64,000 nucleotides of DNA from Ophelia neglecta (Eukaryota): positions 47,740,001 to 47,804,000 of the forward strand of contig OZ260661.1 in NCBI GenBank assembly GCA_965285935.1, in the 5' to 3' direction. Of this stretch, positions 10,501 through 52,945 are shown one piece after another. A program made the position numbers and the translations under genes. The notes beneath the pieces were generated by a model. It saw only the letters and a program-made list of their open reading frames with translations. It searched no databases and was not told where the DNA came from. Each line of letters begins with the position of its first letter. Positions within the stretch are counted from its first letter, which is position 1.

Positions 10501-13500
10501 CGAACAGAGATGAATATGCTTCCGTTTGGAGTGAGTTCATATTTGCCCATTGAGGAGTTTTTTTCCATGTCTTACTTGGTGAGCTTATCAATAGACTGTT
10601 TCTGAGTAGCTCCCAGAGAGGGGGGTAGCACAGCCTCGTTCTGACCGCAGCGGACACACAGGCCTGCAGCTAGGCCGGCCACCTCAGGGTCGACAGAACG
10701 CAACGACTCCTGCATGCGCACTTTGGAATGAAGCTGATCCACCTCCTTCTCATACTGTTGTAACTCCTCTCTAAAAAAAAAACACAATAATGTTCAGAAA
10801 TTAGTAATAATTTTTTTATTTAGCATTAAGTAGGTCCACATCAGCTCAGGAAAATATTGTGACACAGATAAGAAAGAGAAAGATTTTACTTTCAAATACA
10901 GGACAGGAAGGGTTAAAACTCCTGGGAAAACTGTGCAGAAATAATGGTAAAGTTAGATTGCCCAGAGCAATAGATACACAAGGGCTTCAAGGAATGACAC
11001 TTTGGTATGATCATGGGAATATATACAGTAATGGAGGTAATCTGAAATCTGATTTTTTCTAATGGGTGATTGCACATCCCTTTAACAAGGCAAAATATCA
11101 GATCACCAATCTTAGAATGATAATAGGCCTACAAATGAAACTTTCTGAGGCGTGGGAAATGTAGTTTTAACCTGAAAGTCATGTACTTTGTCTTTACAAG
11201 CACAAGATGCCTGGGTTAACATTCATATTGGAGGGGAGCTTTCATAATGTAATGTAATGCACAAGTGCTGGATACCAGTCTGCTGACTTCAGGGAGTCTC
11301 AGAGCAAACATACGGAAGATTTCATTTCCCTTACACAGCAATGAGGTGAGTAGTGACCACATACTCCCAAATATAACAGTTAAACTGCGTATATATGAAT
11401 TTTAAATTTGGATTGGAAACAATTATATATATTTATATATAATTATATATAAATTATATGGATGGCCCTCAGACATTTACAGTCCAAACCCATCATGCAA
11501 ACTCTATTGAAAGCTTGCAAGCTTAATAAATACTCGGTTAAACTTATATTTAAAACTATGAAACAAGAATATATATACATGGAGATTTATACGCTGGTTA
11601 ATAATCATTACTGGTTGTATAGTCATGTAAACAGGACTTGTTATTGAATTAAGGTAGCAAATACCAATACAACAGTAGCAGTGTTTAATAACAGTAAAAA
11701 TACACCTGCACAAACTGGTGTAAACGTATCTGTGTATTAAAGGGGAATGCAAGAGCAGTGGATTGCATTAAACACTGCTCATCAAATCATTGATTCATCA
11801 TTTGGTGCATTACATGTTTCACACTAAGAACTGTTAGTGCTGTGAGTTTTTCTTCAGACTTCTAGTAAAGCTTACTCAGACTGAATTGCACCCTAACCTC
11901 CTGGGTTTCCTGCTACCACATTTTGTGGCTGTAAAATTTGGTCTTAATTTAACACTAAAGAGTCTATCATTTTGCACCCATGTGCCTGATATATAGAATA
12001 GCAATATAATAATGTATTTCCCAGAGATCACATAAGGCACCATCTTTTAGTTCTGGATGGCATTTCTTAAATCAAGTTCTGGATGGCATTTCTTAAATCA
12101 AAGCTCAATATTCACTTAATTCAGTTTTCAAAGTTCATCTTGGGATCAGGGTGCATCTCATGCATACATACATGTATGTTTGAAGGCTCCATAGCTCAGT
12201 ACTGGGTTCATCCATTTGCTTTCATGGTCCACGTGTTAATAAATCATTATGTACCCTTAAACTTGTGTCATAAAACATAAACATGTAGTTTTGTACATAG
12301 TGAAGTTTTAAATACATCAATTTGCAGCCTTCATTTGCATGATTCTACCATCTTCTACCTTTTAAATGATATTACAGTGAAACCTGTGTTTGTGGTCACC
12401 TGTGTAATAAGGTCACCTGCCTACTAAGGTCAATAAATAATGGTCTGATCTCCATAAATGCCTGTGTTAACTGACCTGCCTATTAAGGTCACATGTGAAA
12501 TGTGGTCGGTATTTTCCAGACCCTTGACTGACCTGATTAGATAGGTTTCACTGTATTACTGACAAGTTACAAACCTGGTATGTGTGAGTTGAGCCTCCAA
12601 TCTGCTGACTTTGGCTGTGTGTAAAACCTGGATCCTTTCCTGAAATTACATACATGAATTAAAAAATCATTTTACCAGTGTAGTTCTGAATCTTTTAAGA
12701 TTAAAAGTATGTTTCACCTAACAATAATGTAGCAATGACTGAAAAGGTGATTTAATAGGAGGCAGTCATTCATGATATTGGCTCCTTTATTCATATCAAA
12801 ACATATACATTATAGTCTTGTCTCTTGGAAGTCCTTTGCAATGTGCTGTTTCATTTCTTGTTATTTCATTTATCCATATTTTCAACCAACATAAGTGGAT
12901 GGTTTAATAAACAGGCATGAACTATATATGCTGATAGATTATTGTTGTAAAACCTGTTGATGAAAAAAACATTCTTGTTCTTCTCCCGTTTTTAAGTTGT
13001 ACACTTGATTTTCCTCTGGTAGATTAGATATGGTTTAATATGGTTTATTGAAGCTTGCAGATATTAAACTGTGACTCCATACATGCAGGAGTGTTTTGTT
13101 TGGGAGTTGTGCTAGACTGTGCCCATCCAGAATCCAACTATACTGCCTAGAAGCCATGTGCTCCTCCAACACAATGAATATTTACATCCTTCTCACTCAC
13201 AAACTAATCTATACAGAAACGCCTCCCTGAAAAATCATAATTAGCCAAAAGCAACTCAGGCAGAACTGTTCAATACTGACTCAATAGAATTCTGCTACCA
13301 AATCTACAAATCTCCATCACAGTCATTTGGCTGGGAAATGAGGCACTAGGAGGAAGGAGGTTTCTGGCTAAATGTTAAGAGGCTAGGTAAATACCAGGTC
13401 CAAGAAGTTGGCAGCTTGCGTGTTGAATAATATAACAGTCAAAAGGTTGGTGCTTGACTAGTGATTGCCCTGGGAGAAGAAGTAATCACTTTCTCATGCA

Positions 13501-16500
13501 ACAGTGTCATGAAATATTTCAAAATATCAGTGTTTGGGAGCAATTCTAATATATAAACCAGTGATTCTGGGCCCACTTGGGGAAGCTTTGTCACATAATT
13601 GCAGATAAAGCTTTACCAGAAAGAATGTTCAAATATGGCAATAATAGGTAACTCTATCATGAAAGTTTACTGAATCACACATATAGGACTAGCATTTTTA
13701 TTAGGTCTGAAGGATGGAAATTTAGAAATATCTACAAGTCTCTGATTCTACTTGAGATTAAGACACACTCATAATACAGAAAGGCATTATAAGATCCTGA
13801 CTTGCCTTTTATGACCCCAATGCACCCTCACCCCCAGCCCACCCCCAATCCCACCCAGATCTGCACACCCTCATCCCCTCCCCTTAACCTCGGGCCAGGG
13901 GCTGAAATTATTAGTGAACAGTAGATAGGAGCCAGGTATCCATGTACCCATAGGATACTCCTGGCAGCTGTTGCTTTTCCAGAGGCAGGCATGCATGTTC
14001 CATTCATGATTGTACCATGAATCCAATGGTGCCTTCAACCATGAAGACAATGACAAATTCCATGAATCATTGGAGGAGAACTTGATCAAGGAAATGCATG
14101 AAAATATGCACATGTAACAACTTAGTCTTAAATGTTCATAAGAAGGGAATTGGATAAAAAAAAACTGTACTTAGGAAATCATACAAGGGTTATAATGCCT
14201 AGACCCCCATCCACCCCCCAGTAGATTTATATTGGATAGCTTCTTCAATTCAAACAAAAAACACAATGAGTTTTATCCTGGTGTTTAATGAGTCTCACAA
14301 TAGGCTCCTCCTCTCTGAATAATCATAATGAGCTTCAGCAACTGGCCTGGAACTGTCAATAACACCAGAGTCCCATAACCCACATACCACTTACAGCACG
14401 GAGGGCAAGCCTCCAGCAAACAACCTACTGATCTGGGCTAAACCACACTCACTGTCTAAACATGGATCATGTTGATTGTTTAAGATTAAAATACTAGCCA
14501 ATTACAGAACAGTGGATAAATCAACCATCTAATATCAATAGAAAAACGAAGAAAAAGTTTCAGCTTTAATTAAATGTACTAGTAATTCTGTTCTTAAAAG
14601 AGATGTTCCAAAATGTTTCTGCATCATAAAAAAATATGTAAAATATTATAATTTTAAAATCACAGACATCGCAAGATCTGCTTAACAATGGAATCAATAA
14701 AATTCAAATGGTTTCACCGTGGTTAAACATCAAAATTAAACAACAGGCCCAAGCAGCTAGACTGCCAGAAAATACAGAAGAGAGTGTTTATGTGTATCAT
14801 GTGCATCTTGAGAAGGAAACACATTGTCAACTGACCATATCAACTTATAATTCCGATTAATTTTCGGATATATTTAATAATTGTCTGATAAATTAATTAA
14901 AATTATTCTTCACATAATTTGCTTTTGTGTTCAGCAACAATATGATGTGATCTGACAGCCTGGCTTGAAAATTCATAATGAGGAGAGCAGGACCATGTGG
15001 AACAGATCGCAACACTGGCAGAGCATGAAGACAACGGAATGAGGCCGAGTCAAGTTAGGACTGTAGCTGAGGAAATATTGAGACTTTTAATGATATAAGG
15101 GAGGCAAAAACAAGCAATGTTTTAGTCACTTTTATATTGACAATTAAATTCACATCTATTTGATGCTGATTTTCTTTTGAAATTTCAAAGGTAATTAAGT
15201 CAGCTAATTCACATGTACTGTTCAGTGATAGAGAACTAACTAATGTATACAGTTTTTCTTCACCAATTAGGTTTTATTTTTTTTCTTATATTTGTAGCCT
15301 ACACTTTTGAAAGTATTTAGGATGATCAAAAACATTCCTGTTCTGACCAAAAACAAAGATATTATAAATCTCTATAACATAGGGGATTATAAAATTTAAA
15401 ATAATTATTACATTGTTCTAAAAAAACACCACACCAGGGTTATTAAATTGTAATTATTATTACATCAATGAACACTAGCCCTGATCATGGCTAGGGGCGG
15501 ACACTGATCTGTGTACTATGTGACAAATGCCTCTACTAAGGTGTGACCAGCTGCTCACAACCAAAACTAACGGGACTTGGCATTCCTCGAAAGATCATAA
15601 TGAGATGGTTCTGTGGGAGCTGATTGGTCAGAATGTTAGAATACAGGAATGACATCTGCTGATTGGATCGTTATAAGGCCAGGTGACTAATAGAATGGGA
15701 TTTCAATTTCTTGAAATATCATAATGAGCCACTGGGGCACATGAATCATCTATTAAGGGTTGTCATGGAGACAATAAGAGATGGGTGCTGTACTGATTTC
15801 ACAACTAGTTCATAATGAGCCATTCACTGGTCATCTGGAACTTTTGAGAGATTGTGATTGGTCAGTGAATCGTAAAACAGGTGTTGACGATCTGGACTAT
15901 TTCTAACCAAACCACTGCTTTTGGTCTGACCACTCAGTGCCTCATAATGAGATGTTACAGTGTGAAAGAAAATTCTGGTGCCATGTTGGCACCGGCTATA
16001 GAACCAAACAGAGAGGTCCACCTACGTCAGTCACAGCACTGGTTTTACTGGTACCTCCCCCCCCCCCACTACATGTACTGACCACTCATCTATAAGACTG
16101 ACAAAGATAATTTACAGTGAAACCCCTGATTAAAGACCACCCAAAAATGGCCAAAACAGCTCTTTTAGCAAAACAGTTTGCTATACCTGCCATGTATTTC
16201 AACCCCTGATGAGAGACCACCCCTCATATAAGACCACTTATTTAGGGGTCTCGCATGAGGGGTTCCAATGTGCCATGTTCAATCACTATTGATTCTGTCA
16301 GGTGCAATATGCATAAGGACCAAGAAGGCTTAGATTTTTCTCAAAAATTCATAATGAGGTTGTAGACTTGAGGCAGGACCAGTGGCGTTATTTATGTAAG
16401 GATAATACAGTTAAGGAAGTGTTGAGATTAAGTTGAAGTGTCCAAGGAGAGAAAAATGTCAATAGAGTCTGGAGCTTTTTCCACCGGGATGTGGAATGGA

Positions 16501-19500
16501 ACCATTGAAAGAAAACATGGAGGGTAACCTGAAGATATGAGGGTTCTTAAAAAACTTAACATCTCATTGCTTTGCAAATATACAAAGCCATAATATTCAT
16601 TTAAGAATACTAAGTGCATGGCAAACTCTTTCAATGGGGGAAAGGGTGACATTCACAGATTTCTAAATCTATAATACAGAAGAATCCCTCATGACCACCA
16701 TATTGGTGGTCTTAAAAAAGGGATGGTCCCTCTTCAGGTTTCGAAATTCATAGCCGATATAGCAAACTGTTTCACAAAAAAGACAATTTTTGGATGATTT
16801 TTCATAAGGGCTTCCAGTGTGCTTCAATTTTATGTTGACCATATTCACAGGTACATTTTGCAATCATGAATTTTCCTGTTGCAATCATTCCATATTCACA
16901 GGTACATTTTGCAATCATGAATTTTCCTGTTGCAATCACTCCAGATAATACAGTTCATAAAAAAACATGATACCATCTGACAGTAACAAGACTTGGCATT
17001 CCCTGAAATATCATAATGAGGCAGGAAACTGGACAGTGATTGGTCAGAGTTTGATACTCCCAGAATAAAACTTGCTAATTGGTCCATTGACTAGGAAGGT
17101 GGGTCAAGTAACAGAACTGCAATATTCCTTGAAAATTCAGCCCTCTGGCGGTTTAAATCAGTTCCCATTGAGAGGAACCGTCTGCCACTAATACCAGTCA
17201 AGGGGAAAGGCAGGTGTTCAAATTCTAGCTCAATGAACAACAAAAGTTTTTCCCTTTTATTGCCGATTTTAGATACTGGTAAGTTTTCTGTCACATCTGA
17301 AAATAACTTGTACATTAATTTAGCCCAGGAACAAGTTTCTAGACGACCTGTGTGCATTGCTTTATATAATTTTGAAGAAATAGCTTCTTTTCAATAAACC
17401 ATTACATATCCTATCTCAGCATATTTACTCTTTCCTTCCTCTGCGATCAATGCAAGAGCAGTGAGTTACACTTCTTTTGTTGACAATTGACTGGTAGATA
17501 AAGTGAGATTATGCATTTTCTGGAATTTAGTAATTACATGCAATGGATTCAATATGTCTACAGGGGTCTCCAGGTGTTTAAGGGTTAAAGGAGTGATATG
17601 CAGTCAGATATAACTGTGGAGGGCATTAAGGTGGTCAGCAGGGGTAACAAGTGTCACACTCAGTGCCCTGAAGACTAGGCTTCACCAGTCAACCACTGTT
17701 GTTCACTCATCTATAACAATGACAAAACTACATTGATTAAATACATATGTATATACATTGTTCACAGCAAACAAGGTTTTGATTGTGCCATTGTAAATTC
17801 ACAATGAGATTGTGCCAATAGGGTGGTACTTTAAACAATTCCCTCATTGGAACAAACAATATCAGGAGATTCATAGGATGGGTTTATCATCAGACCCAGA
17901 AAAGATGCAGGCACAGTTTGATGCCAAAAAGACAGAGACAACAAATTGGATGACAACAGAAACTTATAAAATGTATACTAATACAATTTTGAATGTCAAA
18001 GAAATGAACAGTTTGAATTTTTTTTAAATAATCCACATTTTTTCCTGGATGAAATTAAGGTAAATTCACAATTGTGAATTCTTACTGCTGCAAACAGATC
18101 AGATTTACAGCACATAATATTAAAAAAACTGACGATAGCAGAAAGTAAGGTACTTGGCACTCCTTGAAAGATCATAATGAGGAAGCAAAATGTGCCTTGA
18201 TTGGTCAGGTTTGATAATCCAGTAATAGGAGTTGCTGATTGGTCCATTGACCAGGCAGGTGTTTCAAGAAATGGGACTGAAAGATTCCTTGAAAAATCAT
18301 AATGAGGCTGGCTAGTGTGTTCCCATTGAGAGGAACCTCGTGGCACGCGCCAACAGCTAGTGACTAGTCATGAGAAAGAACAGATGTTCAGACTTCCAGC
18401 TCAAGGCATTAAATGGTGTTAGTGGGCTACAATCTAGGATCAGGCAGGGTGATATGCATTGAACAAAGTTAGTATACAATGAGGACTTTATAATTGATAC
18501 ACTGGGACTACTGATGAATCCATCAGACCATGACCATGACCATGTCTAAAAGAACATGTGTCTATTGCTAGGACTTATTGGTCTCAGGATCAACCAACTT
18601 ATGGCCTGCACACCAAGACAAGATTCTCCCAAGAAACACCAGAAAGAGGCCACAATGTACATTTCTTCTCAGCACCTTTATTGTTAATTAATCGATTAAA
18701 AGGCAGTTGTCTTAAATAACAATTTGAAATTGTACTACACAATTATGATTACAGAAATTATGAGACTTCTACTGATATTTCTGTATGAGATAATTCTAAT
18801 TGGACACCATAGGTAATACCATACCTACAATTATAACAATGACAAACGAATAGATCCTTTGTAGTGTCCCTCATTATTGTCCCTGCACAATCAAATCAGC
18901 CATGTTGTATTTCCCAGTCATAAGAGTATTGTGATATTGACAATCTGGATGTGTCAACAGGGGGTGTCACATGGCACTCTTGGGACAACCGCTCTTTGTC
19001 TTTTGGTCTGCCGCCAAGAATGAGGGCTCCAATGAGGAATACTTTACCATTACAAGCTATTAAAACAAGCTACTATATAGCTACATCAAAATACATATCT
19101 AGGCAGTAAAAGGTGAGGTTTTTGATATTTTAAATCCTACCTGACATCTTCGTTTTGAATAGAATAGGAACATTTTTTAACAAACCTAACAGTACCTGGG
19201 TACATGTATTCATAAATTTGCATTGTACATGTATAACCAAATTTGCCTCCCCTTTAAGAGTGCAAATGTCACTGCTGCACAAATTGATCATCACATCACT
19301 CAACAGACACCAGCTGCTAGTTTGAATTTGTTTTTATGTGGGAGAAAGTTGCTTAAAAACAATTTAAGCTGTTCAAGAAAAATGGTTAAGATGAAAAAAA
19401 AGTATTTTTTGGCAAAAAAAGCCATGTTGATTTTTGTGACAATAAGCACTCACTAGTTCCTGGTGCCACTTTCCATAGTCCTGTTTGGACATGGGTTTGT

Positions 19501-22500
19501 GAGGGTCTGGAGGGCTGGATCCTGGGAACAGAGGCTCTCCACCAGGCAGGGTCTTCGGTATCTGTAAATAAAAAACAACCTTGTCACATACTGATCATAA
19601 AAGAATTGATTTAGCTCTAAAGCCGATGAAACATGAATGCTTTAAAAGATGGAGTATCATGTGTGCATGTTCATTATTTGTTCAATTACACAGTAATGAT
19701 GAAATTTAGCATAACCAGGAGGATGTTCATCTCTATTACTTCTGTTGACATATAGGTACTGTAGCTACAAAATTAGATTTGTTTTTCAAATTAATATTGG
19801 CTCTCTTAAAATATCAAACATTAGGGCTAATATTGTCAGCCATAAATTATAAATTTAATATAATTATATCTTAAATCTGCTTTATTATAATTCACTGTAT
19901 TCAGTAACAAACAAGTCACCATAACTACTAGAATATCAGGTAGTCTGCCATCATCAGTAACGTCTGCACTATGATCATGCAGTTTTAACCTTAAATCTTT
20001 GGTCTATATGCAGAAGCACGTAGCAAGTCATAGACTGTGGTTCTGTAAATAAATGTGTACCACTTGACAGAATTCCTTTTACATATACAGATTTCATACC
20101 TGTCTATCTTTATAGAAATGCTTGCTAGAAGCATAGCATATTGATATTTCATTTTTTGATTGCTCAGAAAGGACAGATATCTAGTGGAGCTTGTGTGACA
20201 GTTATCATTTAATACTTACACACACACATATATAAGTACATATATGTACATGCATTTGTCAACTACCTGTACCTTATATGAACAATTTATCTAGTTTCCT
20301 ATCAATATGAATATAGAGTTTGTAACATACAACACACTTAATTCACTGCTGATTTATGTGATGGCCCTCAGCTCAGGGTGGAGTGTTCCATCCTAACAAA
20401 AAACTATTTTTGAATGATCAGCTAGACTTTAAAAAAAGGAAAAGTGTCATCTGGAAGGTGTGCATGTTGTTTGGTGTGAACAGAATTTACCCTGTTAAGG
20501 CTTTAGTGTATCTAGGAGGTATAATAGTACTTTTAATATCATGGAATGAAGTTTTATTAATGTTTATCATTACTTTTAGGATATGACCGTGTCGGCTGCT
20601 TCGTCTTGGAGCAGGGGGGCACGCTGAAGAAGATATGGTGTTAGAGAGATGTGGTGAGGGGAGTGATGGTGACAGCAGTGATTCTGAAGGGACTACCACA
20701 ATACAGAGATGTTATAAGACACTAGCCGCCAAACTGATAGCACTATCACAACAGGTAGGGCAAAATGGCAACCGCATTGCAAAGAATTAACCTGTAATTT
20801 GCCTGTATACTGGTACATTTCGGAAGAGAGTTCGCCTTTTGCCTGCAGCCACATAGGCACAGACAGGGCTAAACTACTTCCTGATATGTGTTAACAAGAT
20901 ATAAATGACTAATTTGTAAATTGCGGAGTTTTCCCACATGTTAAGATGTCTCAGCTCCATTATATTACAACTCATATAAATGTATAAGGCTTACATGTAT
21001 AATGAACAATTGTCACACTTAAATTGGTCAATATAGGCCTACTGGTATTTATTATATGTATGGTCCCTTGCCTTCTTGGTATATTCAGTATGAAACAGGC
21101 CTTGGAGCCCCCAACCCCATCCCCCAACCCCCACCCCACTCCACCCTCCAATCCAGCATTTTGTTATCCTATATTCAACCTCTTAATTCAAAATCTATGA
21201 GTAGTTATTAACAAAGCATTCTCAAAGTAACATATATGATATGCAGATCCTTATAAATAAAACTCATAAAAGTAGGCTCATTCATTTCATTATCAATCCC
21301 ATGCATTCCCGTCACACCTAATAGTAAGCTTTCCTCACTACTGAAATTACCAATTATGTCCTAATCTCCATTATAAGCAGAGTTTTTGTCACAATCGGGC
21401 TGCTGTGTGGCAGAGGGCAGAGAATCTTCTAGAGGGTGTGGCTGGAGTGGGGAAAAGCCACTGAAACAACAGCTTAAATTATCGTGTGATACATGGCTGT
21501 TCTCTCCTACAAAAAAGTCAGCAACCATTTCTGGCATAGCCAAAATATTGCTCTTCCAAATCCCCACGGTCTGCTTGGGGAGACTCGTAGTCCTAACCCA
21601 CATCTGTCAACTCTCCTTGGGCTCCCAGCTCATTTTCTTGATAATCGCCATGGAACCTCAAAAACAATTTCCATATATGACATATTGTCTGCATTTCCTT
21701 CTGGCTCACTTGAAATTGGTGAGAAACTGCCACTGTCACTATTCTTTTCTCTGATTTTAACCATTTTGATACTAATAAATCTGGACAACTAAATGTATGC
21801 CATGAATATACTTGCATAGCAGACTACATGCCAGTCTTTTATACTGGGCACTCATACATGTTATACATGAGATTTGTTATGAATGATGGCAAAATGTACC
21901 TGTATACATAAATGTATGTTGAACCTTTATCCCTACATACTGTAAGACTGGTAGTATACCATCTAAAGAGACCTTATATACTCCAAGCCACTGTGTATAT
22001 ACACTACATTCCAGGTATTACCAATTAATTTGAAGTTTGAGGCGTTCATGTATAACAACAGTCACATAATATGGGTTTTAGGTATATCAGAGACTTCAGA
22101 CAAATCTTTGAAGATCATCCATCAATTGGCACAGACATTAAACCGATCTGGAGTTTTCCAGTACCCCTAGTACATGGTCACTAAAAATAACATACATGTA
22201 TGTCAACTTACCAAAAACATTACTGGCCAGTCGTAAATCCTCTTACGATTAGATAATAAACACAAATCAAGAGTCCGGCCTCCACTTTAGTACCCTTAAA
22301 ATGAGATCTAAGATTGATTGGTTTCCCTCCAACTATGTCACAAGCAAAAGTTCTATGATGCAATTTATGTTATATACATGTACCTTATACCTGCAATAAT
22401 AATATCAACTTCAGCCAAAGTGTAGAATGCATGCTTGAACAAAGTTGCCCACATTACAACTTAATGTACTTGGATGTTCATCTTGGCTATACATGTCAAT

Positions 22501-25500
22501 AAAGTTATTTAAAGTTTGTCAAGAAGATTTCTCTTGATAATTCTACTTGTATTGGTCTTCCTCATATGTTTGTTAGTTTTGTTTTCACTTCTGTCCTTGT
22601 GCTATTCACTCTGTATAGTCTGGTTTGTTTACATACTAGTCTTGTGTTAATCTGGCTTTAATAGACACAAACTAACCAAACATTCAAACAAGCAAACACC
22701 AGAGGCACATTCTGTCTACTGATACGGTGAGAGAAAGCCCCACTGACTTTAAATCTTCCCACATATTATTCTCTAAATACACAATCTTATTAATTCATTT
22801 CATACTTTTTTAGTGCCATGTATTCAAACTTTTAATTGCATGCATCTATGGGTGGCCATTCATGGCTAAATTATATGAAATTAAATCTGGGAATTAATAT
22901 ATTTTTAACTTTTGATAATTTTTTTGCTTTAACAATTTGTACATTCTGTTAAGAGCATATACAGGTAGAGGCGGTTGAGTAATATGGCCTTAAATCTTGG
23001 GGAATATCAAGGAATCAGTAAAGCCTTTAGAACAAACCGTGTACTTATACCAGTAGTACAAATGTACAAATGTATATGTATATGTTCATGTATCATGGTA
23101 TAATGATCAAATTCTAAAATCTTTTTACCTTTAATTAAACAGTTACTTTTAAAAACATATATATTATAGAAGTCATTCATAGAGAGAACTAGCCCTTAAA
23201 AAATAGGAAGTGCCACATACATGCCCTGAATAATTTCAGACATAAACAGACAGGTACTTCTGAAGGGAATTTTGCATGCTTAACTAAAGAATTGGTCCAT
23301 TTTTTTGACAGTATTGTATTCATATAGATGACACGTTTATGAAATGACTGAACTTTGTTCATCACCCGCCTTGTTGATTTTGGAGCTTGAGTGAGCAATT
23401 TATTCTCAATTTGACACACTTTGTCAAGCAAATGTCACAGTTATTCAAAAAGATCAATTTCACCAGAGGTCTTATGATATTATAACAAAAGCCAGATTTT
23501 TTTCATTTTTTTTTGGTTTGTAATTTCTTATGAAAATAATTATACAACCTTTCATATATTTTAATTCTATAGGCTAAGAAAAGGTAATGTATGATTGGAT
23601 TGAATCAATGGGTTAAATGAAAGAAAGACAGAATGAACTCACATTAAATCATTTATCGGTACCCGCACCTTTCATTTGGAAGCTCAACAAAGATTATACT
23701 TAAAGAAGGCAAAAAATTATACTATGATTTGAAGTGGGCCCCATTGTCATTATTCTTTTGCTACCTCATATCGCATTTCCTTATAACTGTATGGTTTGTT
23801 GGTATTTTAACCAGACAACCAAAAAGTCAAGGAGCGTGTCATATGTGGCTCTAATAATATAACAGGCTGACTTGTGGAGGCATCGAGCCATGGGTTTTCA
23901 TTGACTGAAGATGTCAGCAGAGATGATTGAACACAATACGCTGAACTTCTACGTCCCTCACAGGTTGTGGATGGTGAATGGGGGATGGAACCAACAGTGT
24001 ACATAATATTATTCGGCCACAATTTATTTGGGTTTAGTGCATAGTGTGGCACATGGCTACTAGTGTTATGTTGGTAATGTGGAATCCCCGTGTGAAATTA
24101 TTGGACTTTAGTCAATCTCCATTATGAAAGCAAAATCAGCAAGCCTACATGCTTTGTAAACCTACTGGCTGTGAAAACTTGACCATTTGATGAAATAGTT
24201 TAATTTGCAGGCAAATCTCATGGTGGGAATTACATTCTTCTTATAGGACCAAAATATCAATTTCCTTTTGGCTGGACATCAGTAACCATGTCGATGATTG
24301 TGCGTTAATGTACAGGATTTTCTCCGGAATTAATTCACTTAATAAGAACTGCTTGTTATGCCAATTAAAACATGGATACCAGACAAATATCCATTGATGT
24401 CTCTTTGGTGGAAGCCATCACTGTTAAGCTGGATAAAAAGGTATTTGTTTTATACTGTACTACTTACAAACATATAGTTTAATCATAAGATGATTATAGA
24501 GAGTACAGCTAGTTAAGAGGACCAGTTATCTGGGCCACCATACCCAATGGGTCTCACATTAATTATTTCACTCTCCGCACATTTCAACACAGTTTTGCTC
24601 TTGTCTTATATGGATTCAATGGCTATACCTGGGGTTAACTAAGATTCTGGTGGCATCCAGCAGGCAAAGGGTTAAAGTGGTATAATGTTAGGGTTAATTG
24701 CCGGTGACCTGAACTAGTGTAGCATGTTAATACACACCCTGATAATAGGTTCACTCTCCGCTTTGTCATTTATAAATACAAGCATCCTCTTTTTTATTTG
24801 CAAGGTAAAATAATCAACTTTCCATTTGTGTTTTCTATATAGCAGAAAACATTAAAATTGGTATCTATATAATGAGGCTGGGAAACTTTATTTAAATTTG
24901 CTAATAATGATTGCAGATATGTATCTTGGTCCTGTTGACAGAGTTGGGCTTTCAATGGATGATTTTAATTATATGAATGAGTTATTTAGTACCAAATAGT
25001 TGAAGTTTTTAAATGGTTAACTCTTCACTACCTTATACTGGGTCTTTCACAAAAAGTTTGCATTGGAAACATTACAAGTCTTAAGTTTTTGTGCTTGTAT
25101 ACTGGAACATAATAAACTGCATCTGTACCTGCCACAATGTCTTTTATCACACAATGTAGTCTAGTGTAAATTGAACCGCCCACATCCTAACTACCACATA
25201 CCACTTGATACAATATAAATATTGCTTTATAGCCAAAATAAATATAACAAAATCAATCTTATTTATAAAAAATGACAAAACATTTTCCTATTCCAAGTAG
25301 AGGTCTTATAGGCATGGAAGTTTTCAGTTGCTGAAAGTAAGCATTACAGTTACAATGTACTCGGAAAAATAACGTTATTAATCTATGAAGGAGAATAATA
25401 TCAATTCTATGAAATAAAATTCACTAAGTCTTAGTGGTTAGGGATTCATGGAATTAGTGTTGGTTGTTGTTTTAACAAAATAGGTTGTGCCTTTAGACAT

Positions 25501-28500
25501 GTATATATAACTTGAAAGGATGAGAAGGTAATTTAATATTGCTTTCGAGAAGACAACGCCCCTGTGTATTCCACCCACGACCAGGTTTTTACCCGAGACT
25601 TACAAGAGAGTGAAAACTACAAGTTTTTATCTTTTCTACTTGACTTGCAATCTTTGCAATCTTCAGTACCAAGGAACAAGGGATGTTAGAAAACAACTTA
25701 ACAAAACCTAGTTACAATACTGTGACCCAAAAGTAAAATGATAAGATTGTACTTCACTGGGAAAGATTGATTTTTTATTTTTTGTTTCATGTCTGCCAAG
25801 TTTGTGGGATAAAACTCAACACAACCTACCTTTCTCTATTCTTAACATACAAAGTGTCTTATTCAATTTGGAGAAAAAACCAACTCAGATAGAAATATAT
25901 CAATCCTACAGCCATAAAGAAGCTAAGAGCAGTTAACAGAGTAGGGCCCCACAGTTTAATTATTTTAGACTTAAAACGATCTGACACCACTCCCTCTATA
26001 GACTGAGACAGATTTTCATTTTAAGTTTTAAAAGCAATGCTTGCACTATGGGCTGAAAATGATGTTCTCATACAAGTGCAAAGCCCCCTCAGCTTAGTCA
26101 TTTAATCACAACACTTGAGATATATCTAAACCTCTCTGTATTCTTCACACTTTATATTTATGATGAACTAGTATAATGAAATAGTATAATGTTTATATCA
26201 ACTTTAACCCAGTGTGTGATGTTATTTAGTCAATGTCTACAAATTTGTCATATACTTGTGAGACTGTCTGTCTCTGCTGGACTGCCATGCTTTTGAATCT
26301 TTCAAGCATTTGCAACTTTACTTCATTCGGAGGCCACATAATACCACTACATTTAGTGGTGTTTAATTTATTTGTGTCATATTCCAGATATATTTTGTAT
26401 GTACATGCTAATATTGGCACAAGCTATAACATGAAATGATCATTTTTATCTGATAGCAAGATGGCCTCTAGCCCTCTACTCAGATTGCCTCTGATCAGTG
26501 GCCTCAGCTAAGGCTACATGAACTGGACAAGCTTACCCCAGGCACTTCTAGCCCCTCCTGAACAATCTCCTGGATCACACCTCTCTTGATCTCCTCGTGT
26601 AGCAGACGGTTTTCCTCTATCACCTCTCTCAGCTTCATCTTCAGCACCTGCAGTTCATCCTGAAATAAATGTTACTGTACATGATTAACTCTTTTTTTTA
26701 CTTTGATTAATTTAAACAAGTAGGCTGTCATGTCTGGTTTGAATTGTTTCTGTACAATTAGGTCTGACATTCAGGTTGGTACTTTTAATCCTCAAAATGG
26801 AATTGCTGACAGAGGGGTGGGTTGGGGTGTGCCACACAGCACCACATCACTGGCAGCACAGCACCTTTCACAGGAAGCCAACATTGACAACAACCATTTT
26901 TACCATACCATAACGGAGAACTTTTTCAATGCACTTCATAGAGTGCAGTTATCACATGATTAATAACTTAGGGGAACATTAGTCTGAGAGGGTACCGTCA
27001 TGATAAAGTACGTTCTGCAAACTGAACTGCCGTAAAGAAAGACATCATATCATCATAGCATATCATGTTTCTAATTTCAATGCAAGTTTACGCCTTGAAC
27101 ATGGCATTCATACATCATTTAAAAAGGAATTGAGATTTTTTCACAATCAATGGATAGACTGGAAAACCATCCATAGTAACTCATCATTCAAACACAATAC
27201 ATTGTCTGAATAGCTTGTCATAATTTCTATGATTAAATAAGGTCAATCTTTGAAAGGGATTCTCAAGTTATCCAAGGTGTTTTGTGCACCCTTGGTGGTG
27301 TTCTGAACAGTTGAAGAAATAGTTGAGAAATATTTATCACCCTTGATGTTATTGTTGTGTGGATATATTTAGTAACAGAGTATATCTGTGTGTGTTTTGT
27401 CATGTTGTGAGAACAACAAAGTTCTACCATTTCAAAACATTTACAGCATATGCAAATATACAGAAGATAGACTTGGGGTCTCCATTATGGACCCAACAAG
27501 CAAATCATAGAGGTGTTTAATATGTATTTTCACACTGCTGGTTTGCAGCCCTAATGACAGCATTGTCTATTACCATTTGAAAGGAATGATTGATGAAATA
27601 AACCTTAAAAATAAATTTTGCAGGAGCCTTCCCCCTTAATCAAATTCTACTGCTATTTAAATGTACGTCGTATTTGGAACATCTTTTTTGACTCCCTACC
27701 ATTCAACTTTATAAACATCACATTGTATACATTTCATACAAGCATATAATACTGTAGAGCACAACATTTCACCTAGAATTTAATGTTTCCATTTCATAAG
27801 AGACACTACATGTATATCGTAAAAATAACTTTCCACAAATGAAATGTTTACAACTAAATATCTCCTTGTTAAATATTTGTTCATAAAAACCAATTCCATT
27901 ATTGTAAAATTTTCACAAAGTTTGTATATATATATGGCTCATACAGCAATGAGATTAATGAAATGCCTGATTTTTACATTCATGAGAACTTTACTTCAAC
28001 ATTAAAATCACACAACCAACTCACCCTGCAGAATTTATTCTCAGCCTCGACTTGGGTGAGCTGCCCAGCCTGGTTCTGTAGTAAAGGGACAGTTTCCTCA
28101 GGGGTGGGGATCTCACCCCGTGGCACGGGTGGATATCTTTGTGGGCTACTGCCAGACATGTACACATTGTAGTCTTCATTCTGGACTCTACCAGGCTGAA
28201 AGATACAAAACTATGATGCATAACAAGAGAAATGTTCAAAATTAATCACTTGCACATGCATGTTTGAAAGCTGACAAACCCATATTATTGAGGATCTTCA
28301 AACAACTTACATGTTAACTATAGTTTTGTCAATACATGTACAATTTTACTTGCAAATGTTATGATAAGGAAAGTCTTCTCATAAGGTTTCATGTGAATGA
28401 AATACTAATTATACATTTAGTGTTACCACATTACATGTTAACCCATGGCCTAATAATTAGAAGTGGATATATTTACATGGAATAAAGTAGTTAATTTCAC

Positions 28501-31500: not shown

Positions 31501-32719
31501 TTTCTAATCGATTACCATTGGAAAGTGGAAATTTTTGTGCTTTCTTTTGATGTACTGCAAATTAATAAGAGCTGCCAAAAAGCCCTTCACATGGGCCACA
31601 ATAAATTTCATTGCGGAATCTATGTAAACTTTATTGATGGCAGTGCCTCTCCTTAAATACTGCATAATTATTTTTTCACTCACAATACGGTGGAAGTAAA
31701 GTCAAATAGGCAATCTAGGTGGAAAGCATTAATCTCCATCAATAACCATAGAATATATGTTTTGTACCCTAATGTTCCAAACACTCAGCATTCACAATGA
31801 TGCCAAGTTCTGTCATACATCCTTGCTCTTCATCTGGAGTACAAAGTGTGACTTTGTGTCAGTTTAATAATCTGGCTATAGAATCTTGCCCTCCGTTACA
31901 GCTGCCTAGTGGAAAGTTTCTTAATCCATCTGCCTGACCATTTATTTGTAACTAAAGACCTAGAATACATGGCAGGTTCTGTGCACATCTGCTAACAAAT
32001 AGAATGTCCTTTTTATTTCACATGATCCTGAAAAAGGGCCCATTAGTAACCACAGGCGCTCGTGTCTGGTCAATAATAAGGGGAGGGAGTGATGGTGGGA
32101 ATCTCTATATCACTACCCATATCTCTATCACTACCCATGGGTAGTGATATAGAGATTCCCACCATCACTCCCTCCCCTTATTATTGACCAGACACGAGCG
32201 CCTGTGTTAGTAACCATGAAATTAGATGATGCACCACACATCTAACCCCCCCCCCCCCGGAACATCCACCTAGTTTATTTTTGAGGCAGGAGATATTTTT
32301 GGTTATTTTTGACTATAAATTAATAATAGTGCATAAACCAGTTAACTGGTATCAATGTACATTACAAGTGCTTTCAAGGTACCACCCTGATCTCAGTGCA
32401 TGTTGTGCAAGACTACATGCAGTTCTGACAAGCATAATGTAGACTAGGAGCAGAGAGACAGAATACAGATAATTTTTTAACATAATTATGCAGTAAATGA
32501 AAACCAATTTGACGATGTTAGACAATTTCTACCAACTGAATAAAATAGAATAATTTTAATGATAATGTACAAATCCGCCAATAAATGTTCTCACGGAAAA
32601 CAAGCCACAACATGAACTGTCAAAGCTGCCAAAAGCATGTACTCAAGATTTCTACCTCGGATTGATCGTTGATACTCTACATATGAGTCGTTTAAATCTT
32701 CCTCTTGGTAGAAGCTCAT
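4131..32719 (-). CDS. SDCCAG8: SDCCAG8 (CCCAP/NPHP10/BBS16) centrosomal/ciliary coiled-coil protein; 15 coding exons, 2511 nt, 836 aa
   Basis: Join of 32719-32656, 30561-30320, 28195-28025, 26659-26537, 19561-19454, 12639-12575, 10770-10576, 8766-8628, 8003-7851, 7497-7363, 6922-6677, 5871-5739, 5435-5318, 4942-4768, 4574-4131. All introns are GT-AG with matching phases and there is no internal stop. Peptides match recalled human SDCCAG8: YQRSIRDRATDSIHEL~YQRSLREHASRSIHQL, QVEAENKFCR~HLEAEVKFCK, GLCVRCGQNEAVL, EESAYQQVK, ERQLLAREVEFLRQQL. Confidence 0.93.
4768..4942 (-). CDS. SDCCAG8: SDCCAG8 exon 14 (KDNRKLKANNEQL...HSSSQ)
   Basis: Acceptor tggtag, donor gtaact; phase 2 to 0. Confidence 0.9.
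5318..5435 (-). CDS. SDCCAG8: SDCCAG8 exon 13 (QTSAELED...LRGECRKL...ARY)
   Basis: Acceptor ttgtag, donor gtttgt; phase 1 to 2. Confidence 0.9.
5739..5871 (-). CDS. SDCCAG8: SDCCAG8 exon 12 (THLAKLGK...ETKH)
   Basis: Acceptor tttcag, donor gtaagt; phase 0 to 1. Confidence 0.9.
6365..6579. mobile_element. PIF/Harbinger-like MITE
   Basis: About 25-bp imperfect terminal inverted repeats (TIRs) GGTCCAGTTTCTGGAAGCGGTCTTA / TAATACCGCTTCTAGAAACTGGGCC; CTG flanks on both sides. Confidence 0.7.
6677..6922 (-). CDS. SDCCAG8: SDCCAG8 exon 11 (ATDSMKMS...SLERE)
   Basis: 82 codons within ORF 6671-7066; acceptor cctcag, donor gtatga. Confidence 0.9.
7363..7497 (-). CDS. SDCCAG8: SDCCAG8 exon 10 (IKDLQESL...DYGK)
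   Basis: 45 codons; acceptor ctttag, donor gtaaat. Confidence 0.9.
7851..8003 (-). CDS. SDCCAG8: SDCCAG8 exon 9 (AMVQREQLKEE...ELNSK)
   Basis: 51 codons, coiled coil; acceptor gtgtag, donor gtacag. Confidence 0.88.
8628..8766 (-). CDS. SDCCAG8: SDCCAG8 exon 8 (DRDELMDQL...QLEMTQ)
   Basis: Acceptor ttttag, donor gttggc. Confidence 0.92.
10576..10770 (-). CDS. SDCCAG8: SDCCAG8 exon 7 (EELQQYEKE...GLCVRCGQNEAVL...)
   Basis: Poly-T acceptor, donor gtaag; conserved CxxC motif. Confidence 0.92.
12049..12100. repeat. 26-bp perfect tandem duplication
   Basis: AGTTCTGGATGGCATTTCTTAAATCA x2. Confidence 0.9.
12375..12553. mobile_element. Tc1/mariner (pogo/Tigger-like) MITE
   Basis: TA|CAGTGAAACCT ... 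AGGTTTCACTG|TA; ends about 20 bp from the exon 6 donor. Confidence 0.75.
12575..12639 (-). CDS. SDCCAG8: SDCCAG8 exon 6 (ERIQVLHTAKVSRLEAQLTHT)
   Basis: Acceptor tttcag, donor gtttgt; phase 0 to 2. Confidence 0.85.
16115..16270. mobile_element. pogo/Tigger-like MITE, same subfamily as 34892-35051
   Basis: TA|CAGTGAAACCCCTGAT...; the internal AAAAATGGCC.AAACAGCTCTTTT.GC is shared with the 34.9-kb copy. Confidence 0.7.
16839..16940. repeat. 51-bp direct tandem duplication
   Basis: 16839-16889 and 16890-16940 differ at one position. Confidence 0.9.
19454..19561 (-). CDS. SDCCAG8: SDCCAG8 exon 5 (IPKTLPGG...YGKWHQEL)
   Basis: Acceptor tttacag, donor gtgagt; 36 codons; KWHQEL resembles the human KW..EL segment. 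Confidence 0.85.
20580..26000 (+). pseudogene. Decayed NACHT-LRR (NLR-like) gene nested antisense in SDCCAG8 intron 4 (limits approximate)
   Basis: Collinear broken motifs: Walker A LLEGVAGVGKS 21426-21458, QLIFLI and SIYDIL about 21627-21690, Walker B-like FMYNNSHIIWVLGISE 22045-22092, T/SR about 22262-22272, LIGF 22314-22325, ELCSSPALL 23350-23376, YRYPHLSF 23654-23677, LRR-like LETLQVLSFCACIL about 25063 and SLIILDLK about 25953. Many stops and frameshifts; residual splice sites. Confidence 0.7.
26537..26659 (-). CDS. SDCCAG8: SDCCAG8 exon 4 (DELQVLKMKLREVIEEN...EVPG)
   Basis: Acceptor tttcag, donor gtaagc; 41 codons; not in ORF track. Confidence 0.9.
28025..28195 (-). CDS. SDCCAG8: SDCCAG8 exon 3 (PGRVQNEDY...EAENKFCR)
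   Basis: Acceptor ttcag, donor gtgagt; 57 codons. Confidence 0.9.
30320..30561 (-). CDS. SDCCAG8: SDCCAG8 exon 2 (DRATDSIHEL...VQFSPR)
   Basis: Acceptor ttttag, donor gtaagt; lies within ORF 30290-30577. Confidence 0.9.
32051..32206. mobile_element. Palindromic MITE with perfect 70-bp arms and 8-bp TSD (hAT- or P-type)
   Basis: 32051-32120 is the exact reverse complement of 32137-32206; TTAGTAAC flanks both sides (32043-32050, 32207-32214). Confidence 0.9.
32656..32719 (-). CDS. SDCCAG8: SDCCAG8 coding exon 1 (MSFYQEEDLNDSYVEYQRSIR)
   Basis: ATG at 32719; donor G|gtaga, phase 1. Confidence 0.85.
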
Positions 32720-39266: not shown

Positions 39267-42200
39267 TTATCTTAGAAACCATAAACCACCACCCTTTGAT
39301 AAACATATACCTGCTGTTCCTGTCTTTATCACAGCTCCAGTCAATTTACCATGTAGTTCCTTGTACACTTTTCTTGGTCTGTATGTGGCAACCAGTTTCC
39401 CTGATACCAGTGACTTGTGTGCTTTCCATTTGGTAGCCAAGTCTCTCGTTGAAACATTCTTATTTGAAATGGAATCAGTTTTAATTTGTAATCTTTCATG
39501 TTGCTTTCTGTGATGATAACAATTATCCCTTATTCTGGGCAGAGCATCAGATGGCTTTGTCGTACTTTTTCTAAAATATCCATATTTTGTGTTTTCATAT
39601 GGACTTGTTTCATGCCCTGCTTGCTCAGTTTTACCAGCATCCCTGGTTGGCACTTCAGATGGGTTTAATGCTTGCTCTTGTATGTCCTCATTTGGACTGG
39701 GATGATCTTGTTTACATGCTGAGCAGACGACAGATATACAACAGCAAACACCTGAAGTTGTGTGATCTGATGGCACTGAACCTCCACTAGCCATATGGGC
39801 AGAATCTGATGCTGTTTCTATAAGTGTTGACACTATAACACTCCGCTAAAATGGAACATTACCGGTAACACAACAGTGGTTAATTAATGGAAACTACAGA
39901 AATTTGTTGTGGGTGATTTTCGTCCGTGGAATATACATGTAATGTGCCTGTAGTTAAAAACCAAACCTATTTATGCATACTGGTGACTAGTAATCCATTT
40001 CACCACAGGCATCACCGCAATCCATTTTTGTTTTTCATCATCATATTCCACTGTCTTATTAACTGTCAAATATGTACTCCTATTATTCAGTTACATGGAC
40101 ATGTACATGTATGTCGGTCACACCCCTTTTGTTCTGTTGTTCCTCATATGATGTCTAATTTGTACCTAGGTGCTGGTGCAGTAAGTGCTGGGTTTGACCA
40201 CCTGATATATACAGTTTCCTAGTTTTAATATCATAACTCACATGCACAACACACCCCTAAGGCTACTTGGAGGTGCACATCTCAATCAGTTAACTATACT
40301 TGATAAAACTGCAGTCACCAGATGCTGTGCGATGTGTCCTGTGGTTGATAACAATTATTATCATATGATACTTTTTTAAGTAGGCAGCCAGAAGGCCTTA
40401 CACACAATGTGGTCAACATTGACTGTGCCGAGTTCACTGTACATGTACAAGTATAATTTGAAGACATTCTCTATGTAAAATTCACACCTAAATAATACAT
40501 GTTTATTATTTGCTTTTCATGTTTATTCTCAGGTAGATCCTTGTGCCTGAAATTTTCATTTACTTACTGGTTCTGCCTCTTTTGTTTGTATGTGAAAATT
40601 CCCTAGTTAGGATTTAATATTGACCCTTTACACGTTTATAAGTTAATTTGTAGTTGTCAGACCGAATGATATAAAGTTAAACAGATTCCTACTTCAGCTA
40701 CTTTAAAAGGGTTCCTCACAACCAAGCTCTAATAGTAATAGACAAACTGAGTAGTAATAATAAAAATGAAAATAGATTATATAAAACCCAACATACATTG
40801 GCAACAAGAAAAAAGATACTTTGATATCATGTAATACAAAATAAGGTACCTGACAATAAAACTTTTAATGTTTGCAATGATATTGATAAAAAAAATTTTT
40901 TTTAGCCAGATTCAAGCTACTGAAGTGTGAGGAGTAGATACTTTGGATTCTTGTCATATACTCAAAGTTTTAAATATTTTAGCATCTAACATTAATTATG
41001 CCAGATACTCATTGATTTAATAGTAAAGTGTAGCATTTTTAATTTTTGAAGGCTAGCAAATAATTTCAGCTTCAACGAAAGTTTTGTGTGCATGAGAAGA
41101 AAAAATTCTGTGCAGTTTAAAATGATTACAATGTTTGTATAATGTATACATGTACCGTTAGGATATATATCAATTGTGAAAATATCTTATACCATTTATT
41201 TAACACTATGTTGAAATTTTGCTAACAAATTCACAAATCAGACCAGCATTTTGATGTACATGTCCTCTCTACCTTTAGGCACTGTGTTTTTTACAGGTCA
41301 AGTTTTTGTAATGGCCTGGTCCTTGGCGTCATTATGCTAAACTAGCCGCTTGATACCTTACAAGGGCACTGACTGTCGCTGTAATGGCTCTTGACAAATG
41401 TAACCATTTGTTGTCCTAATAGTTGGTGGCATTGAATTGTTTGTCTGCATGAAGGAGGTCCTTGAGGGTTTCCAATACTTAGAACCACGCACTGCTGGAA
41501 TAGAGTTGGAAACTTCCAAACCAAAATGCACATTCAGTATAAACATATTTTTATGGTATCTTTTGTGTATGTTGTTGATAGAGTTTAATAAACTACTATA
41601 CCAGGTCCCGATCAATCTCTATAAGTTCTGAAGGAAATACATCTACTTGACTATGTGTACTTTTGGCAACAAAGTTGATAGTCATTTGAGAAGTAAAATA
41701 AAACTTCATGACCATTTATAACAGTCAATATTAAGTCTGGAATAAACTGAATGCAGATTAAGAATTCAATATTCTACGATTAGTTGAACAAACTCTTTCA
41801 TGAAAATACTTAACATTTTCCCTGTATACAGGTCGTGCCAGGCACCATTTTTCATGTCAGACAGATTTCAATATGAATTGTTAAAAGTCATGTTGGTTTT
41901 AACCAAAGTATTCAACTTACTTAATACCTAATGTTTTACAGTATCTTACTTTTGGTTAATTGCCTGGAATTTCACTCAATTTCAACCTGCCAATTTCATC
42001 AGTAAAAACAATGTGACAATGATCATTGTATTTTAACCAGCGAAGATTTGTCATTCGGGAACATACTGGGTAATATGTATTTACCAGCTACCATCACGTA
42101 ATTGGCATTTTTTGGCACTCAGCCGATAAGTTTTCACTTGCCTGTCAGATATACATGGTATTTGCCGGTAGGAAGATACCTCAATGAATGGCTTTGTCTT

Positions 42201-43100: not shown

Positions 43101-44942
43101 TGGTATTCATGTATAAACTTCTCCAAGTTATTTCCAACACACAGGCTCCAGAACCTTACTGGTCTGTCTGTTAAAGCTTATAATCTCCTATCTAGAGATT
43201 TTGATGTATTGATCAAGGTTTTTATACTAGTAACTTACACTATTTATGACTTGAATTGTAAGCGGGCAATTTGCATGGCCATAGGGCCACCGCTAAAATG
43301 TGCTCAAGAGACCTAACCTGAATGATTAGCCCATAGAATTGCTACAATCTGCACCAACTTGTACAATTAGATGTATTTGGAATGTACATTTCCATGCACT
43401 TGCTTCAAGGAACTTGAAATAATTTTTTCTAAACTAGATCATTCATAATATTTGATTATATATTGAGATATACTCTGATCATGAACTCATGGCTACATTG
43501 TAGATGCCTGTAGGCATAGCTAGATATTTATGAGTTCTAGCTTGGCAGTCAAATATTGGTAATAGAAGTGTCTAAAACTCTTAGTAAATCATGATTTTAG
43601 GGTACACTCTGTATGTAATTATACCTGAGCCAAGATTATATATCTTATAGAGGTTTTATTGGCAGATTGGCTTTGTCTTGATTTGGACTAATCTTTGGTC
43701 TCCACCTGTGCATATCACACGGTATCAGGTACACCTGACTTCTTGACAACAGCCAGCCATATGCTGTTTTTGTGTCTTACATACTCATATGTTCATATAT
43801 ACCAGTTCCTTGTGACAAAATATTATTGCAACAGCTGGGATTTTTGCTATTTTGCTAAACGTTTCACTGCGCACCATCCAACATTTGACTTGTGCATTTT
43901 GCCGTATCCGGCCTGCATGATATTTTCTCTGTGTGAATAATGAAGAGATAAAGACAAAATTATCTTGGATTCATTTACATTTACAGTTAATTTGCATTAT
44001 TGTAATCACTGGCATTTGATATACATGTACTGTAATGATTTGTTCAGCGGAAGGAATGGCTATTGTGCTCTTGGCCATTATGTGCTAGTACTGTGGTAGT
44101 GAAACAATGACGCAAGTGGGGCCAAACCTCAGCAGAAAAGTTAGTAGAAATGTCCGGAATCTACATACATGAGCTGTTAACATCTAAGCTCTTACAAACT
44201 GGAATATATTTACGGACCAAGTCTCAGCTCAGATTCAGGTGTTAACCCATGACATGCATGGTCAATGCTGTACGTCATACACATATCTTTAGTCTCGTGA
44301 ATTCTTAAGGATTTGAAATGGGCCAAACCACCTGGGGATCTGTATAATGAAGATACCAGATGAACTAAAATACACCACCCAGCTATTCTGTAATTTGCAT
44401 CACTGTTGGCCACCAATTGATTGATGCTTTGGGATAAACTGTGGAAAATAAGTCTAAATTGTGAAGAACTAGACCAAATTTATTGAGGAAATTGTGTAGT
44501 GTGATAAAGCTCTCTGTGGAAAAGGATAGACTTTCTTCTGATTTGTCATTTACTTAGATTCCTGATGTGTCATGCCCCAACTAGTATCTAGTCTGTGGTA
44601 CAAACATAAAGCTTTATTTAATACAGTAGGCATGTGTCAGCCAATATTATGTGATGTGGTACGTCAGCAGACACACCAGACACTAATGACTGTGGAATTT
44701 GTTCTATTTAATAACAGACACTTAGAACTTCACCAAGTGAAGTGACTTCCTCTATGTTGATGATGTTGTGATAGAAAGGTTAAAGTCTTAACACTGATTA
44801 TCTTGATGTTGTTTGGATTAGGATTTCTATATTCCTGGATATACTGTTTGGAATAATGGTTAAACATTATTTAAAGCTTGTTTTGTTGAAGATGCTGTAA
44901 CACTGGAATTGAATGCAAAGATTGTAGAAAAAACTTGATAAA

Positions 44943-45332
44943 ATGACTGGTAAACATTTCTTCAAGAAGTGGCTGACACCCAAAGGTCGTAAGAAGGAGC
45001 ATGCAGCAGCCGCGGGAGTTCATATTCCTCCCACCCTAAAGGACGATGATGATGGAGGCTTCCTGAACAGGGTTCATGGTGGACATCATACATCAGGGCA
45101 GGGAGGGATCTTGAGAAGGAATGGCAGGGGAAACGGGAGCCCTCAACATAGAACCTCCTGGCCTAACAGAGGGGCCCGCAATGGGTTTGTTCCCTATGAG
45201 GACCCCTGTGTTGATTATTACCCTCCTCCCCCTGTCAGTGATACATGTAGTATTTTCTCAGAGGACAGTCTGATGATAACTCCCTCTCATAGTATGTCAA
45301 GTGTGGACCAGATCTCCTTCTACCAGGAACAG
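44943..45332 (+). CDS. CEP170: Candidate alternative first coding exon of CEP170 (130-aa N-terminal extension)
   Basis: AAA-ATG start, GC-richer coding-like sequence, 130 codons ending CAG|gtagga in phase 0; joins in frame to the phase-0 exon at 52829. Confidence 0.65.
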
Positions 45333-52828: not shown

Positions 52829-52945
52829 GACAAGATGACCCATGCCAGTACTCAATGGCACTTGGTGGACAGGGCTGGCAAGAAGATCCAGCTCCCACAG
52901 ACCATGATCTTCCTGGGTCGAGAGGAGTGTGACATTAAAATACAG
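52829..52945 (+). CDS. CEP170: CEP170 exon encoding the start of the FHA domain (DK-MTHASTQWHLVDRAGKKIQLPQTMIFLGREECDIKIQ)
   Basis: Acceptor ttttccag, ATG at 52835, donor CAG|gtaaag. Matches the recalled human CEP170 N-terminus ([30 protein letters not shown]). I found no next FHA exon before 64000. Confidence 0.88.

Follow-up and report, generated by a model that had tools for sequence, protein, structure and literature searches.

A candidate NACHT-type pseudogene fragment antisense in an SDCCAG8 intron of Ophelia neglecta

The NACHT-LRR immune receptors (NLRs) are the closest described systems for the element considered here, a putative NLR relic in a 64,000-bp window of the Ophelia neglecta genome (C1:47,740,001–47,804,000, where C1 is contig OZ260661.1; positions below count from the first base of the window). 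The genome searched comprises 762 Mb in 223 contigs. A preliminary description had read 20580–26000 as an unprocessed, intron-containing NACHT-LRR pseudogene nested antisense in SDCCAG8. The nesting stands, as the candidate lies on the + strand inside an intron of this minus-strand centrosome gene. We propose a shorter element, with a probability of about one half: bp 20580–22200 would be the 5′ pseudogene fragment of a divergent, intron-containing NACHT-type (NLR-like) gene.

NACHT genes of this and other genomes

PMC3879445 counts 55 NLRs in Capitella and describes one sponge clade with NACHT plus LRR on one exon; its supplementary gene models may hold further intron-split NACHTs. According to PMC4852459, NACHT lies on the largest exon in a zebrafish family and in NLRC3.

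In O. neglecta itself, the NACHT profile PF05729 scores 94 of 247 candidates, all 94 without stops and with open frames of 483–857 codons. A second query scores 150 of 177, so that the genome holds at least 150 NACHT copies. NLR copies thus appear to arise often in this lineage, and dead copies would be expected. The single-exon NACHT families belong to the same domain family as the relic but, unlike it, have their own Walker A, GGAGxGK, and an intron-free NACHT. The expansion is large (for example at C1:0.5–19 Mb, C2, C5, C7, C9, and C12), with many copies clustered near contig ends. One copy (L088, C1:19.88 Mb, minus strand) is broken by one frameshift and is likely a young NLR pseudogene. 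Some subfamilies (L038, L102) carry long acidic low-complexity inserts past the winged helix, and at C9:822,357–823,641, minus strand, a short NACHT Walker A fragment stands in three tandem copies, about 555 bp apart, in 100-codon frames.

A second group is NLRC4/NLRC3-like. Its member L089 (C2:31.66 Mb) is NLRC4-like, has 962 codons in a single frame, and shows its motifs in an order like that of the series listed in the preliminary description; its closest named relative is from Capitella teleta, and others are from Branchiostoma, Glandiceps, Ptychodera, and corals. These invertebrate NLRs share with the relic a Walker A of the hhEGxxGxGKS type, and they have Walker B where the relic shows an N-x-x-hhhh-G-x-x-E stretch. 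They differ in having NACHT on one long frame and clear TSRP, PL, HxSFQE, and LRR elements, none of which is detectable in the relic, and no pairwise similarity to the relic was found.

The third comparison is a CARD-NACHT gene on the minus strand of C5 (L087/L189/L190, 23,118,000–23,148,000), which is intact, with 0 stops in 306 matched columns, and has at least six introns inside NACHT, five placed by the aligner and one more splitting Walker A. As in the relic, introns fall inside NACHT, one of them in phase 0 shortly before Walker B. Unlike the relic, the gene is intact and has an intron within Walker A, and its intron before Walker B is offset by about 6 codons from that of the relic. Its similarity to the relic is no higher than that of shuffled sequence (70 of 100 and 23 of 100 shuffles as high). 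Because an intact gene of the same genome has introns there, NACHT-internal introns are not unique to the relic, and the C5 gene is the better object for studying them. It is apparently present once in a genome whose NACHT copies, at least 150 in number, mostly lack introns, and is followed by a run of LRR-looking exons of 84–143 bp, of which the one scanned had no Pfam match.

Walker A and the exon-like segments

The features of the locus are collected in the table, and the three exon-like segments are numbered as there.

Table. Features of the candidate NACHT-type relic and its surroundings (window coordinates; GC, guanine-plus-cytosine fraction)
Feature	Position	Strand	Remarks
SDCCAG8 host intron	19562..26536	-	6975 bp, GC 0.349; candidate wholly inside, on + strand
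Exon-like segment 1	20580..20754	+	acidic stretch, then likely helix; exon finder 24.8 bits, GC 0.497
Exon-like segment 2	21381..21718	+	Walker A frame at start; GC 0.453
NACHT-type Walker A (P-loop) LLEGVAGVGKS	21426..21458	+	hhalign P 1.6e-6, probability 90%
Frameshift	21459..21464	+	right after Walker A; TGA 21462–21464 in Walker A frame (assembly sequence)
Exon-like segment 3	22015..22197	+	Walker-B-like stretch; open 51 codons, TAG 22168–22170; candidate donor 22198
Walker-B-like stretch	22051..22134	+	conserved Asp absent; hhalign P 0.023 at Walker B columns
Proposed helical/winged-helix and LRR part	23328..24500	+	unsupported; GC 0.35

The Walker A is the strongest element. It has the form hhhxGxxGxGK[ST] of the NACHT NTPase (PF05729). 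The P-loop alone, a 14-column block, scores 22.9 bits, and the block with the following helix scores 19.4 bits. The latter value tops all 100 natural 5-kb segments, and a genuine small-GTPase P-loop in the flank reaches 17.5. Even the bare GxxGxGK[ST] occurs 0.1 times per shuffled window and twice in 264 kb, the second occurrence being the small GTPase; far fewer than one Walker A of such quality is expected per window. A degenerate pattern for this Walker A finds no second site in the 762 Mb, but it was derived from the window itself, and its uniqueness shows only that no intact paralogue retains it. The Viterbi path of a decayed-gene profile hidden Markov model (HMM), unaided, settles on 21428 for the Walker A and on 22015 for the acceptor, and also takes in the Walker-B-like stretch and ELCSSP.

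The Walker-B-like stretch is more modest. It aligns at the columns of the consensus hhhhDGxDE, without the invariant Asp. Taken alone, it is equalled by 2 of 300 column shuffles and 67 of 3290 natural segments. The first four motifs past Walker A together score 25.0, a value reached by 11 of 566 natural segments and 2 of 300 shuffles and falling in the range of relics decayed by 20–30%, although the split at four motifs was chosen post hoc. The motifs of segment 2 behind Walker A score no more than chance (50 of 300 shuffles as high). From Walker B to the GF motif, 5 of 300 shuffles and 147 of 1526 natural segments score as high; within it, the TSR (sensor-1) and GF blocks at their proposed places reach 2.8 and 2.6 bits, under the null medians.

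The borders given earlier are present: ttttag precedes segment 1 and gtaggg follows it, segment 2 lies between cag and gtgaga, and ccag precedes segment 3. A family-blind exon finder, which also recovers the SDCCAG8 exons, returns the borders of segment 1 exactly and ranks it as the top + strand candidate in the SDCCAG8 span among those without host-exon overlap. Segment 1 has a single stop, the TGA at 20584–20586. Its donor, GTAGGG at 20755 (score 6.6), is in phase 0 with the Walker A frame, so that the segment 1 open frame splices in phase into Walker A; a second donor, GTGAGG at 20654, is the strongest in the segment (score 8.2). The two donors that border segments 1 and 2 are good, with 1.3–1.6 equal sites per kb.

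In segment 2 the three frames have 8, 3, and 0 stops in 112 codons, and the stop-free frame spans the whole segment and ends in phase 0. Frameshift-aware alignment puts the break at 21460. After this one frameshift, the stop-free frame joins the open codons of segment 3 in phase, so that the further frame carrying SIYDIL, on which the preliminary description drew, is needless. Spliced, the three segments give about 219 codons, broken once. The GC fraction of segments 1 and 2 is exon-like relative to that of the host intron, whereas segment 3, weak as an exon (8.9 bits, GC 0.364), and the 3′ region are intron-like.

Open frame on this strand of the intron exceeds chance. Only 3 of 60 3-mer shuffles contain a spliceable open chain as long without a frameshift, and 0 of 60 do with one. 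The chains also beat 8 of 8 exon-free control strands, narrowly so without a frameshift (217 vs up to 215). The longest run through segments 1 and 2, not 3. The forward score of a generic coding model is less clear than the open-chain test (5.2 on the + strand, 6.6 on the - strand). Under that model, 54–100 of 100 mononucleotide shuffles beat the region; this null was inflated and was replaced by the 3-mer shuffles. Single-sequence fold prediction of the segment 2 frame was uninformative (predicted local distance difference test score 46).

Downstream motifs and the search for relatives

The motifs quoted in the preliminary description are where it placed them: besides the Walker A, LKLSCDTW at 21473, QLIFLI at 21626, SIYDIL at 21670, IIWVLGISE at 22066, LIGF at 22314, ELCSSPALL at 23350, MSQLF at 23432, IGL at 23594, and YRYPHLSF at 23654. 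Whether the series is more than its Walker A was judged with eleven motif blocks, defined from a NACHT profile and not from the window. The core profile holds 79 sequences, i.e., L089 relatives (74 taken) and frames of the own genome. Raw-score nulls, which composition or real exons had inflated, gave way to column shuffles, a mixed null, and 3-mer shuffles.

The eleven-block chain scores above every one of 300 column shuffles and above 99 of 100 natural segments. This signal is that of Walker A, because the other ten blocks sit near the null medians. Nine of these ten score 2.6–8.2 bits, no more than the median of the best scores in random 5-kb segments (7–9 bits). Anchored behind Walker A, the blocks have a log2 likelihood ratio of -12.4, a value that 258 of 300 shuffles and also 370 of 438 natural anchors reach. 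In the power control, 11 held-out NACHT proteins were given three introns, 10–30% substitutions, and indels, and 0 of 44 simulated relics per level fell as low. With free spacing the chain scores 54.4 against 52.0 ± 5.9, and 64 of 210 natural segments are as high; 0, 0, 1, and 3 of 55 simulated controls are as low at 10, 20, 30, and 40% decay. The last six motifs score 29.4 against a null mean of 33.4 (256 of 300 and 237 of 300 as high), under all 220 simulated relics, which were decayed by up to 40%.

The part proposed to hold the helical domain, winged helix, and LRRs fares no better. Its score is matched by 68 of 300 shuffles and 662 of 1112 natural segments, and each frame has 22–24 stops in 391 codons. 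The block tests gave no signal for a helical domain and winged helix (PL, LY, GLL, FxHxSFQE), and the window is absent from the 78 NOD2_WH matches among 92 candidates. LRR profiles on 23700–26400 are equalled by 92 of 100 and 93 of 100 shuffles, which leaves the LRR-like segments of the preliminary description without support; hhalign places one 150-codon piece on LRR with P 0.0069 and a probability of only 5.5%. No Pfam match to a death-fold or other effector domain was obtained in 19600–26500, and exons further upstream, in other introns of the host, were sought only with the exon finder. A HxQFQE-like match of 19.7 bits, 120 kb upstream, is isolated and was treated as chance. Thus, of the collinear NACHT/LRR series, the stretch from Walker A to Walker B holds, with the former strong and the latter modest, and the rest is background. 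The statistical support is confined to the front third of the span originally claimed.

No parent or orthologue of the relic was identified in the own-genome and protein-database searches. Aligned with 30 + 26 NACHT frames of the own genome and with 74 L089 relatives (by tblastn and by frameshift-aware pairwise and profile alignment), the relic stays within the control range. Copies of the segments were found neither in the own genome nor in 0.9 Mb of compared DNA, and the ESM Atlas gave no relative. Segment 1 was also considered as a Walker A fragment of the main NACHT family, on a 44-residue tblastn match of one subfamily (E about 0.02), and this was rejected, with 60 of 100 shuffles as high at the DNA level.

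Weighing the readings

The observations themselves comprise the three pieces with their phases, the Walker A, and a break directly behind it. On the reading we prefer, a fragment of an NLR-like pseudogene, the three segments would once have been one transcript, encoding an acidic linker, a helix, the Walker A, and a Walker-B-like strand. The frameshift behind Walker A and the stops at 20584 and 22168 would have ended its function, and the helical, winged-helix, and repeat parts may have been deleted or have drifted past recognition. The relic most likely has no present function and is removed together with the host intron during splicing.

Several results weigh against this proposal. Pfam gives NACHT or LRR in 0 of 6 frames (stops as X) and in none of 107 stop-free pieces, and the curated cut-off of PF05729 is not reached. 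With phmmer, one of three frames (21490–24600) had 0 matches at E ≤ 0.001 among 1.84 billion proteins. Word-based protein searches gave 0 of 35 candidates for segment 1 and 0 of 34 for segment 3, the latter among proteins of 570–1815 residues only, and the PDB held no relative. Within the own genome, searches by DNA, protein, and pattern return the locus itself apart from one match on C8 with E 0.08, which is not a NACHT; a 51-bp repeat at 24635–24686 was also noted. In frameshift-aware alignment, the full-profile HMM score is not significant, ranking only 16th–23rd among 100 natural segments, and the N-terminal profile minus Walker A is not significant either (48 of 300 as high). Segment 1 alone is not exceptional, because about five other non-genic exon candidates of at least 22.8 bits occur in the window. 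The three acceptors are ordinary, with about 8 equal sites per kb. Of the exon–intron structure of an unprocessed pseudogene, the locus shows the exact segment 1, good donors, and fitting phases beside these ordinary acceptors. Finally, the few stops imply light decay, whereas the motif scores imply 20–30% decay; an ancestor that was already divergent would reconcile the two.

Among the rivals the first, though unlikely, is that the locus is a chance assembly, i.e., GC-rich intron debris of old mobile-element or other origin with one P-loop-like word and motifs picked across three frames. The low scores of nine of the ten downstream motifs, the free-spacing result, the lack of a homologue, and a coding forward score that is higher on the - strand speak for it. 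Yet chance would have to combine, besides the Walker-B-like stretch and two phase matches, a Walker A of 23 bits with an exon of 25 bits lying 670 bp upstream on its strand, and the segments have no copies in the own genome or in the 0.9 Mb compared. Because the Walker A has an in-phase exon upstream and an in-phase Walker-B-like stretch downstream, chance is the less likely account. Somewhat less probable is a full-length NACHT-LRR pseudogene over 20580–26000, whose lineage would have diverged beyond the reach of the profiles. The best hhalign placements do come in the expected order (columns 75–87, 150–177, 246–252, 357–369, and 757 onward), and ELCSSP to YRYPHLSF spans 98 codons against 107 residues in L089, but the pieces aligned had been selected for motif resemblance, and the last six motifs and the LRR test are negative. 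The full model is unlikely because the helical, winged-helix, and LRR signal is absent in a test that finds heavily decayed controls.

We consider it improbable that the locus is a small intact orphan gene, in which donor 20654 would lead into the stop-free frame of segment 2 and on to segment 3, the Walker A frame being a leftover or chance. Such a frame is unbroken from ATG 20635 to TAG 22168 (170 codons, or 186 from 20587), uses the strongest donor of segment 1, and has an AATAAA at 22255. However, AATAAA is present 5 times in 4.3 kb, the first coding piece has only 19 bases, and the segment 2 and 3 frames have no homologue. More speculative still is a recycled NLR fragment, in which donor 20654 would bypass the frameshift and the Walker A exon would be reread, giving a predicted 170-codon protein antisense to SDCCAG8. 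If RNA bore out this splice form, it would represent gene birth from an immune pseudogene, and only then would the locus gain in importance. The least probable reading is a remnant of another P-loop gene of a STAND, AAA, or GTPase family other than NACHT. In its favor, the residues past GKS add nothing to the NACHT score, which drops from that of the P-loop alone when they are included, and the small GTPase scores well with the same block. Against it, the Walker-B-like stretch fits the NACHT profile in the right place and order, and Pfam, through which alone other P-loop profiles were compared, gave no match.

If the NLR-like fragment is real, it would be a single dead piece, probably of an ordinary pseudogene, in a genome where NACHT copies number at least 150. 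As the trace of an intron-containing NLR lineage that was lost and left no living paralogue, it would be of minor value for the history of the family. Expanded NLR families commonly include pseudogenes, and genes nested antisense within others are common as well. In the accessible part of the literature on SDCCAG8 (CEP170, synteny, nesting, introns), no report of an NLR nested in this gene was found.

SDCCAG8 lies on the minus strand with its ATG at 32719. The Pfam family CCCAP/SDCCAG8 is matched by 5 of 12 minus-strand pieces scanned, 3 of them above the cut-off. The exons on either side of the host intron, 26537–26659 and 19454–19561, are open and in phase 0, in agreement with the preliminary description, and intactness is claimed for these two, the full model being incomplete at 10771–19453. 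There the frame demands at least one further exon, and the candidate at 13281–13345 has stops. The first SDCCAG8 intron contains an inverted repeat with arms of about 60 bp, seen by eye (32063–32113 and 32146–32208), which is probably a small non-autonomous element. On the + strand at 52829–52928, in head-to-head orientation to SDCCAG8, an exon without a Pfam match reads like what we take to be the start of a CEP170-type FHA protein; CEP170 and SDCCAG8 are head to head in vertebrates. Between the two lies a 167-codon open frame on the + strand (44928–45431), with an exon-like score of 27 bits and no Pfam match. A 192-codon open frame on the - strand (39267–39845), also without a Pfam match, is possibly a mobile-element remnant.

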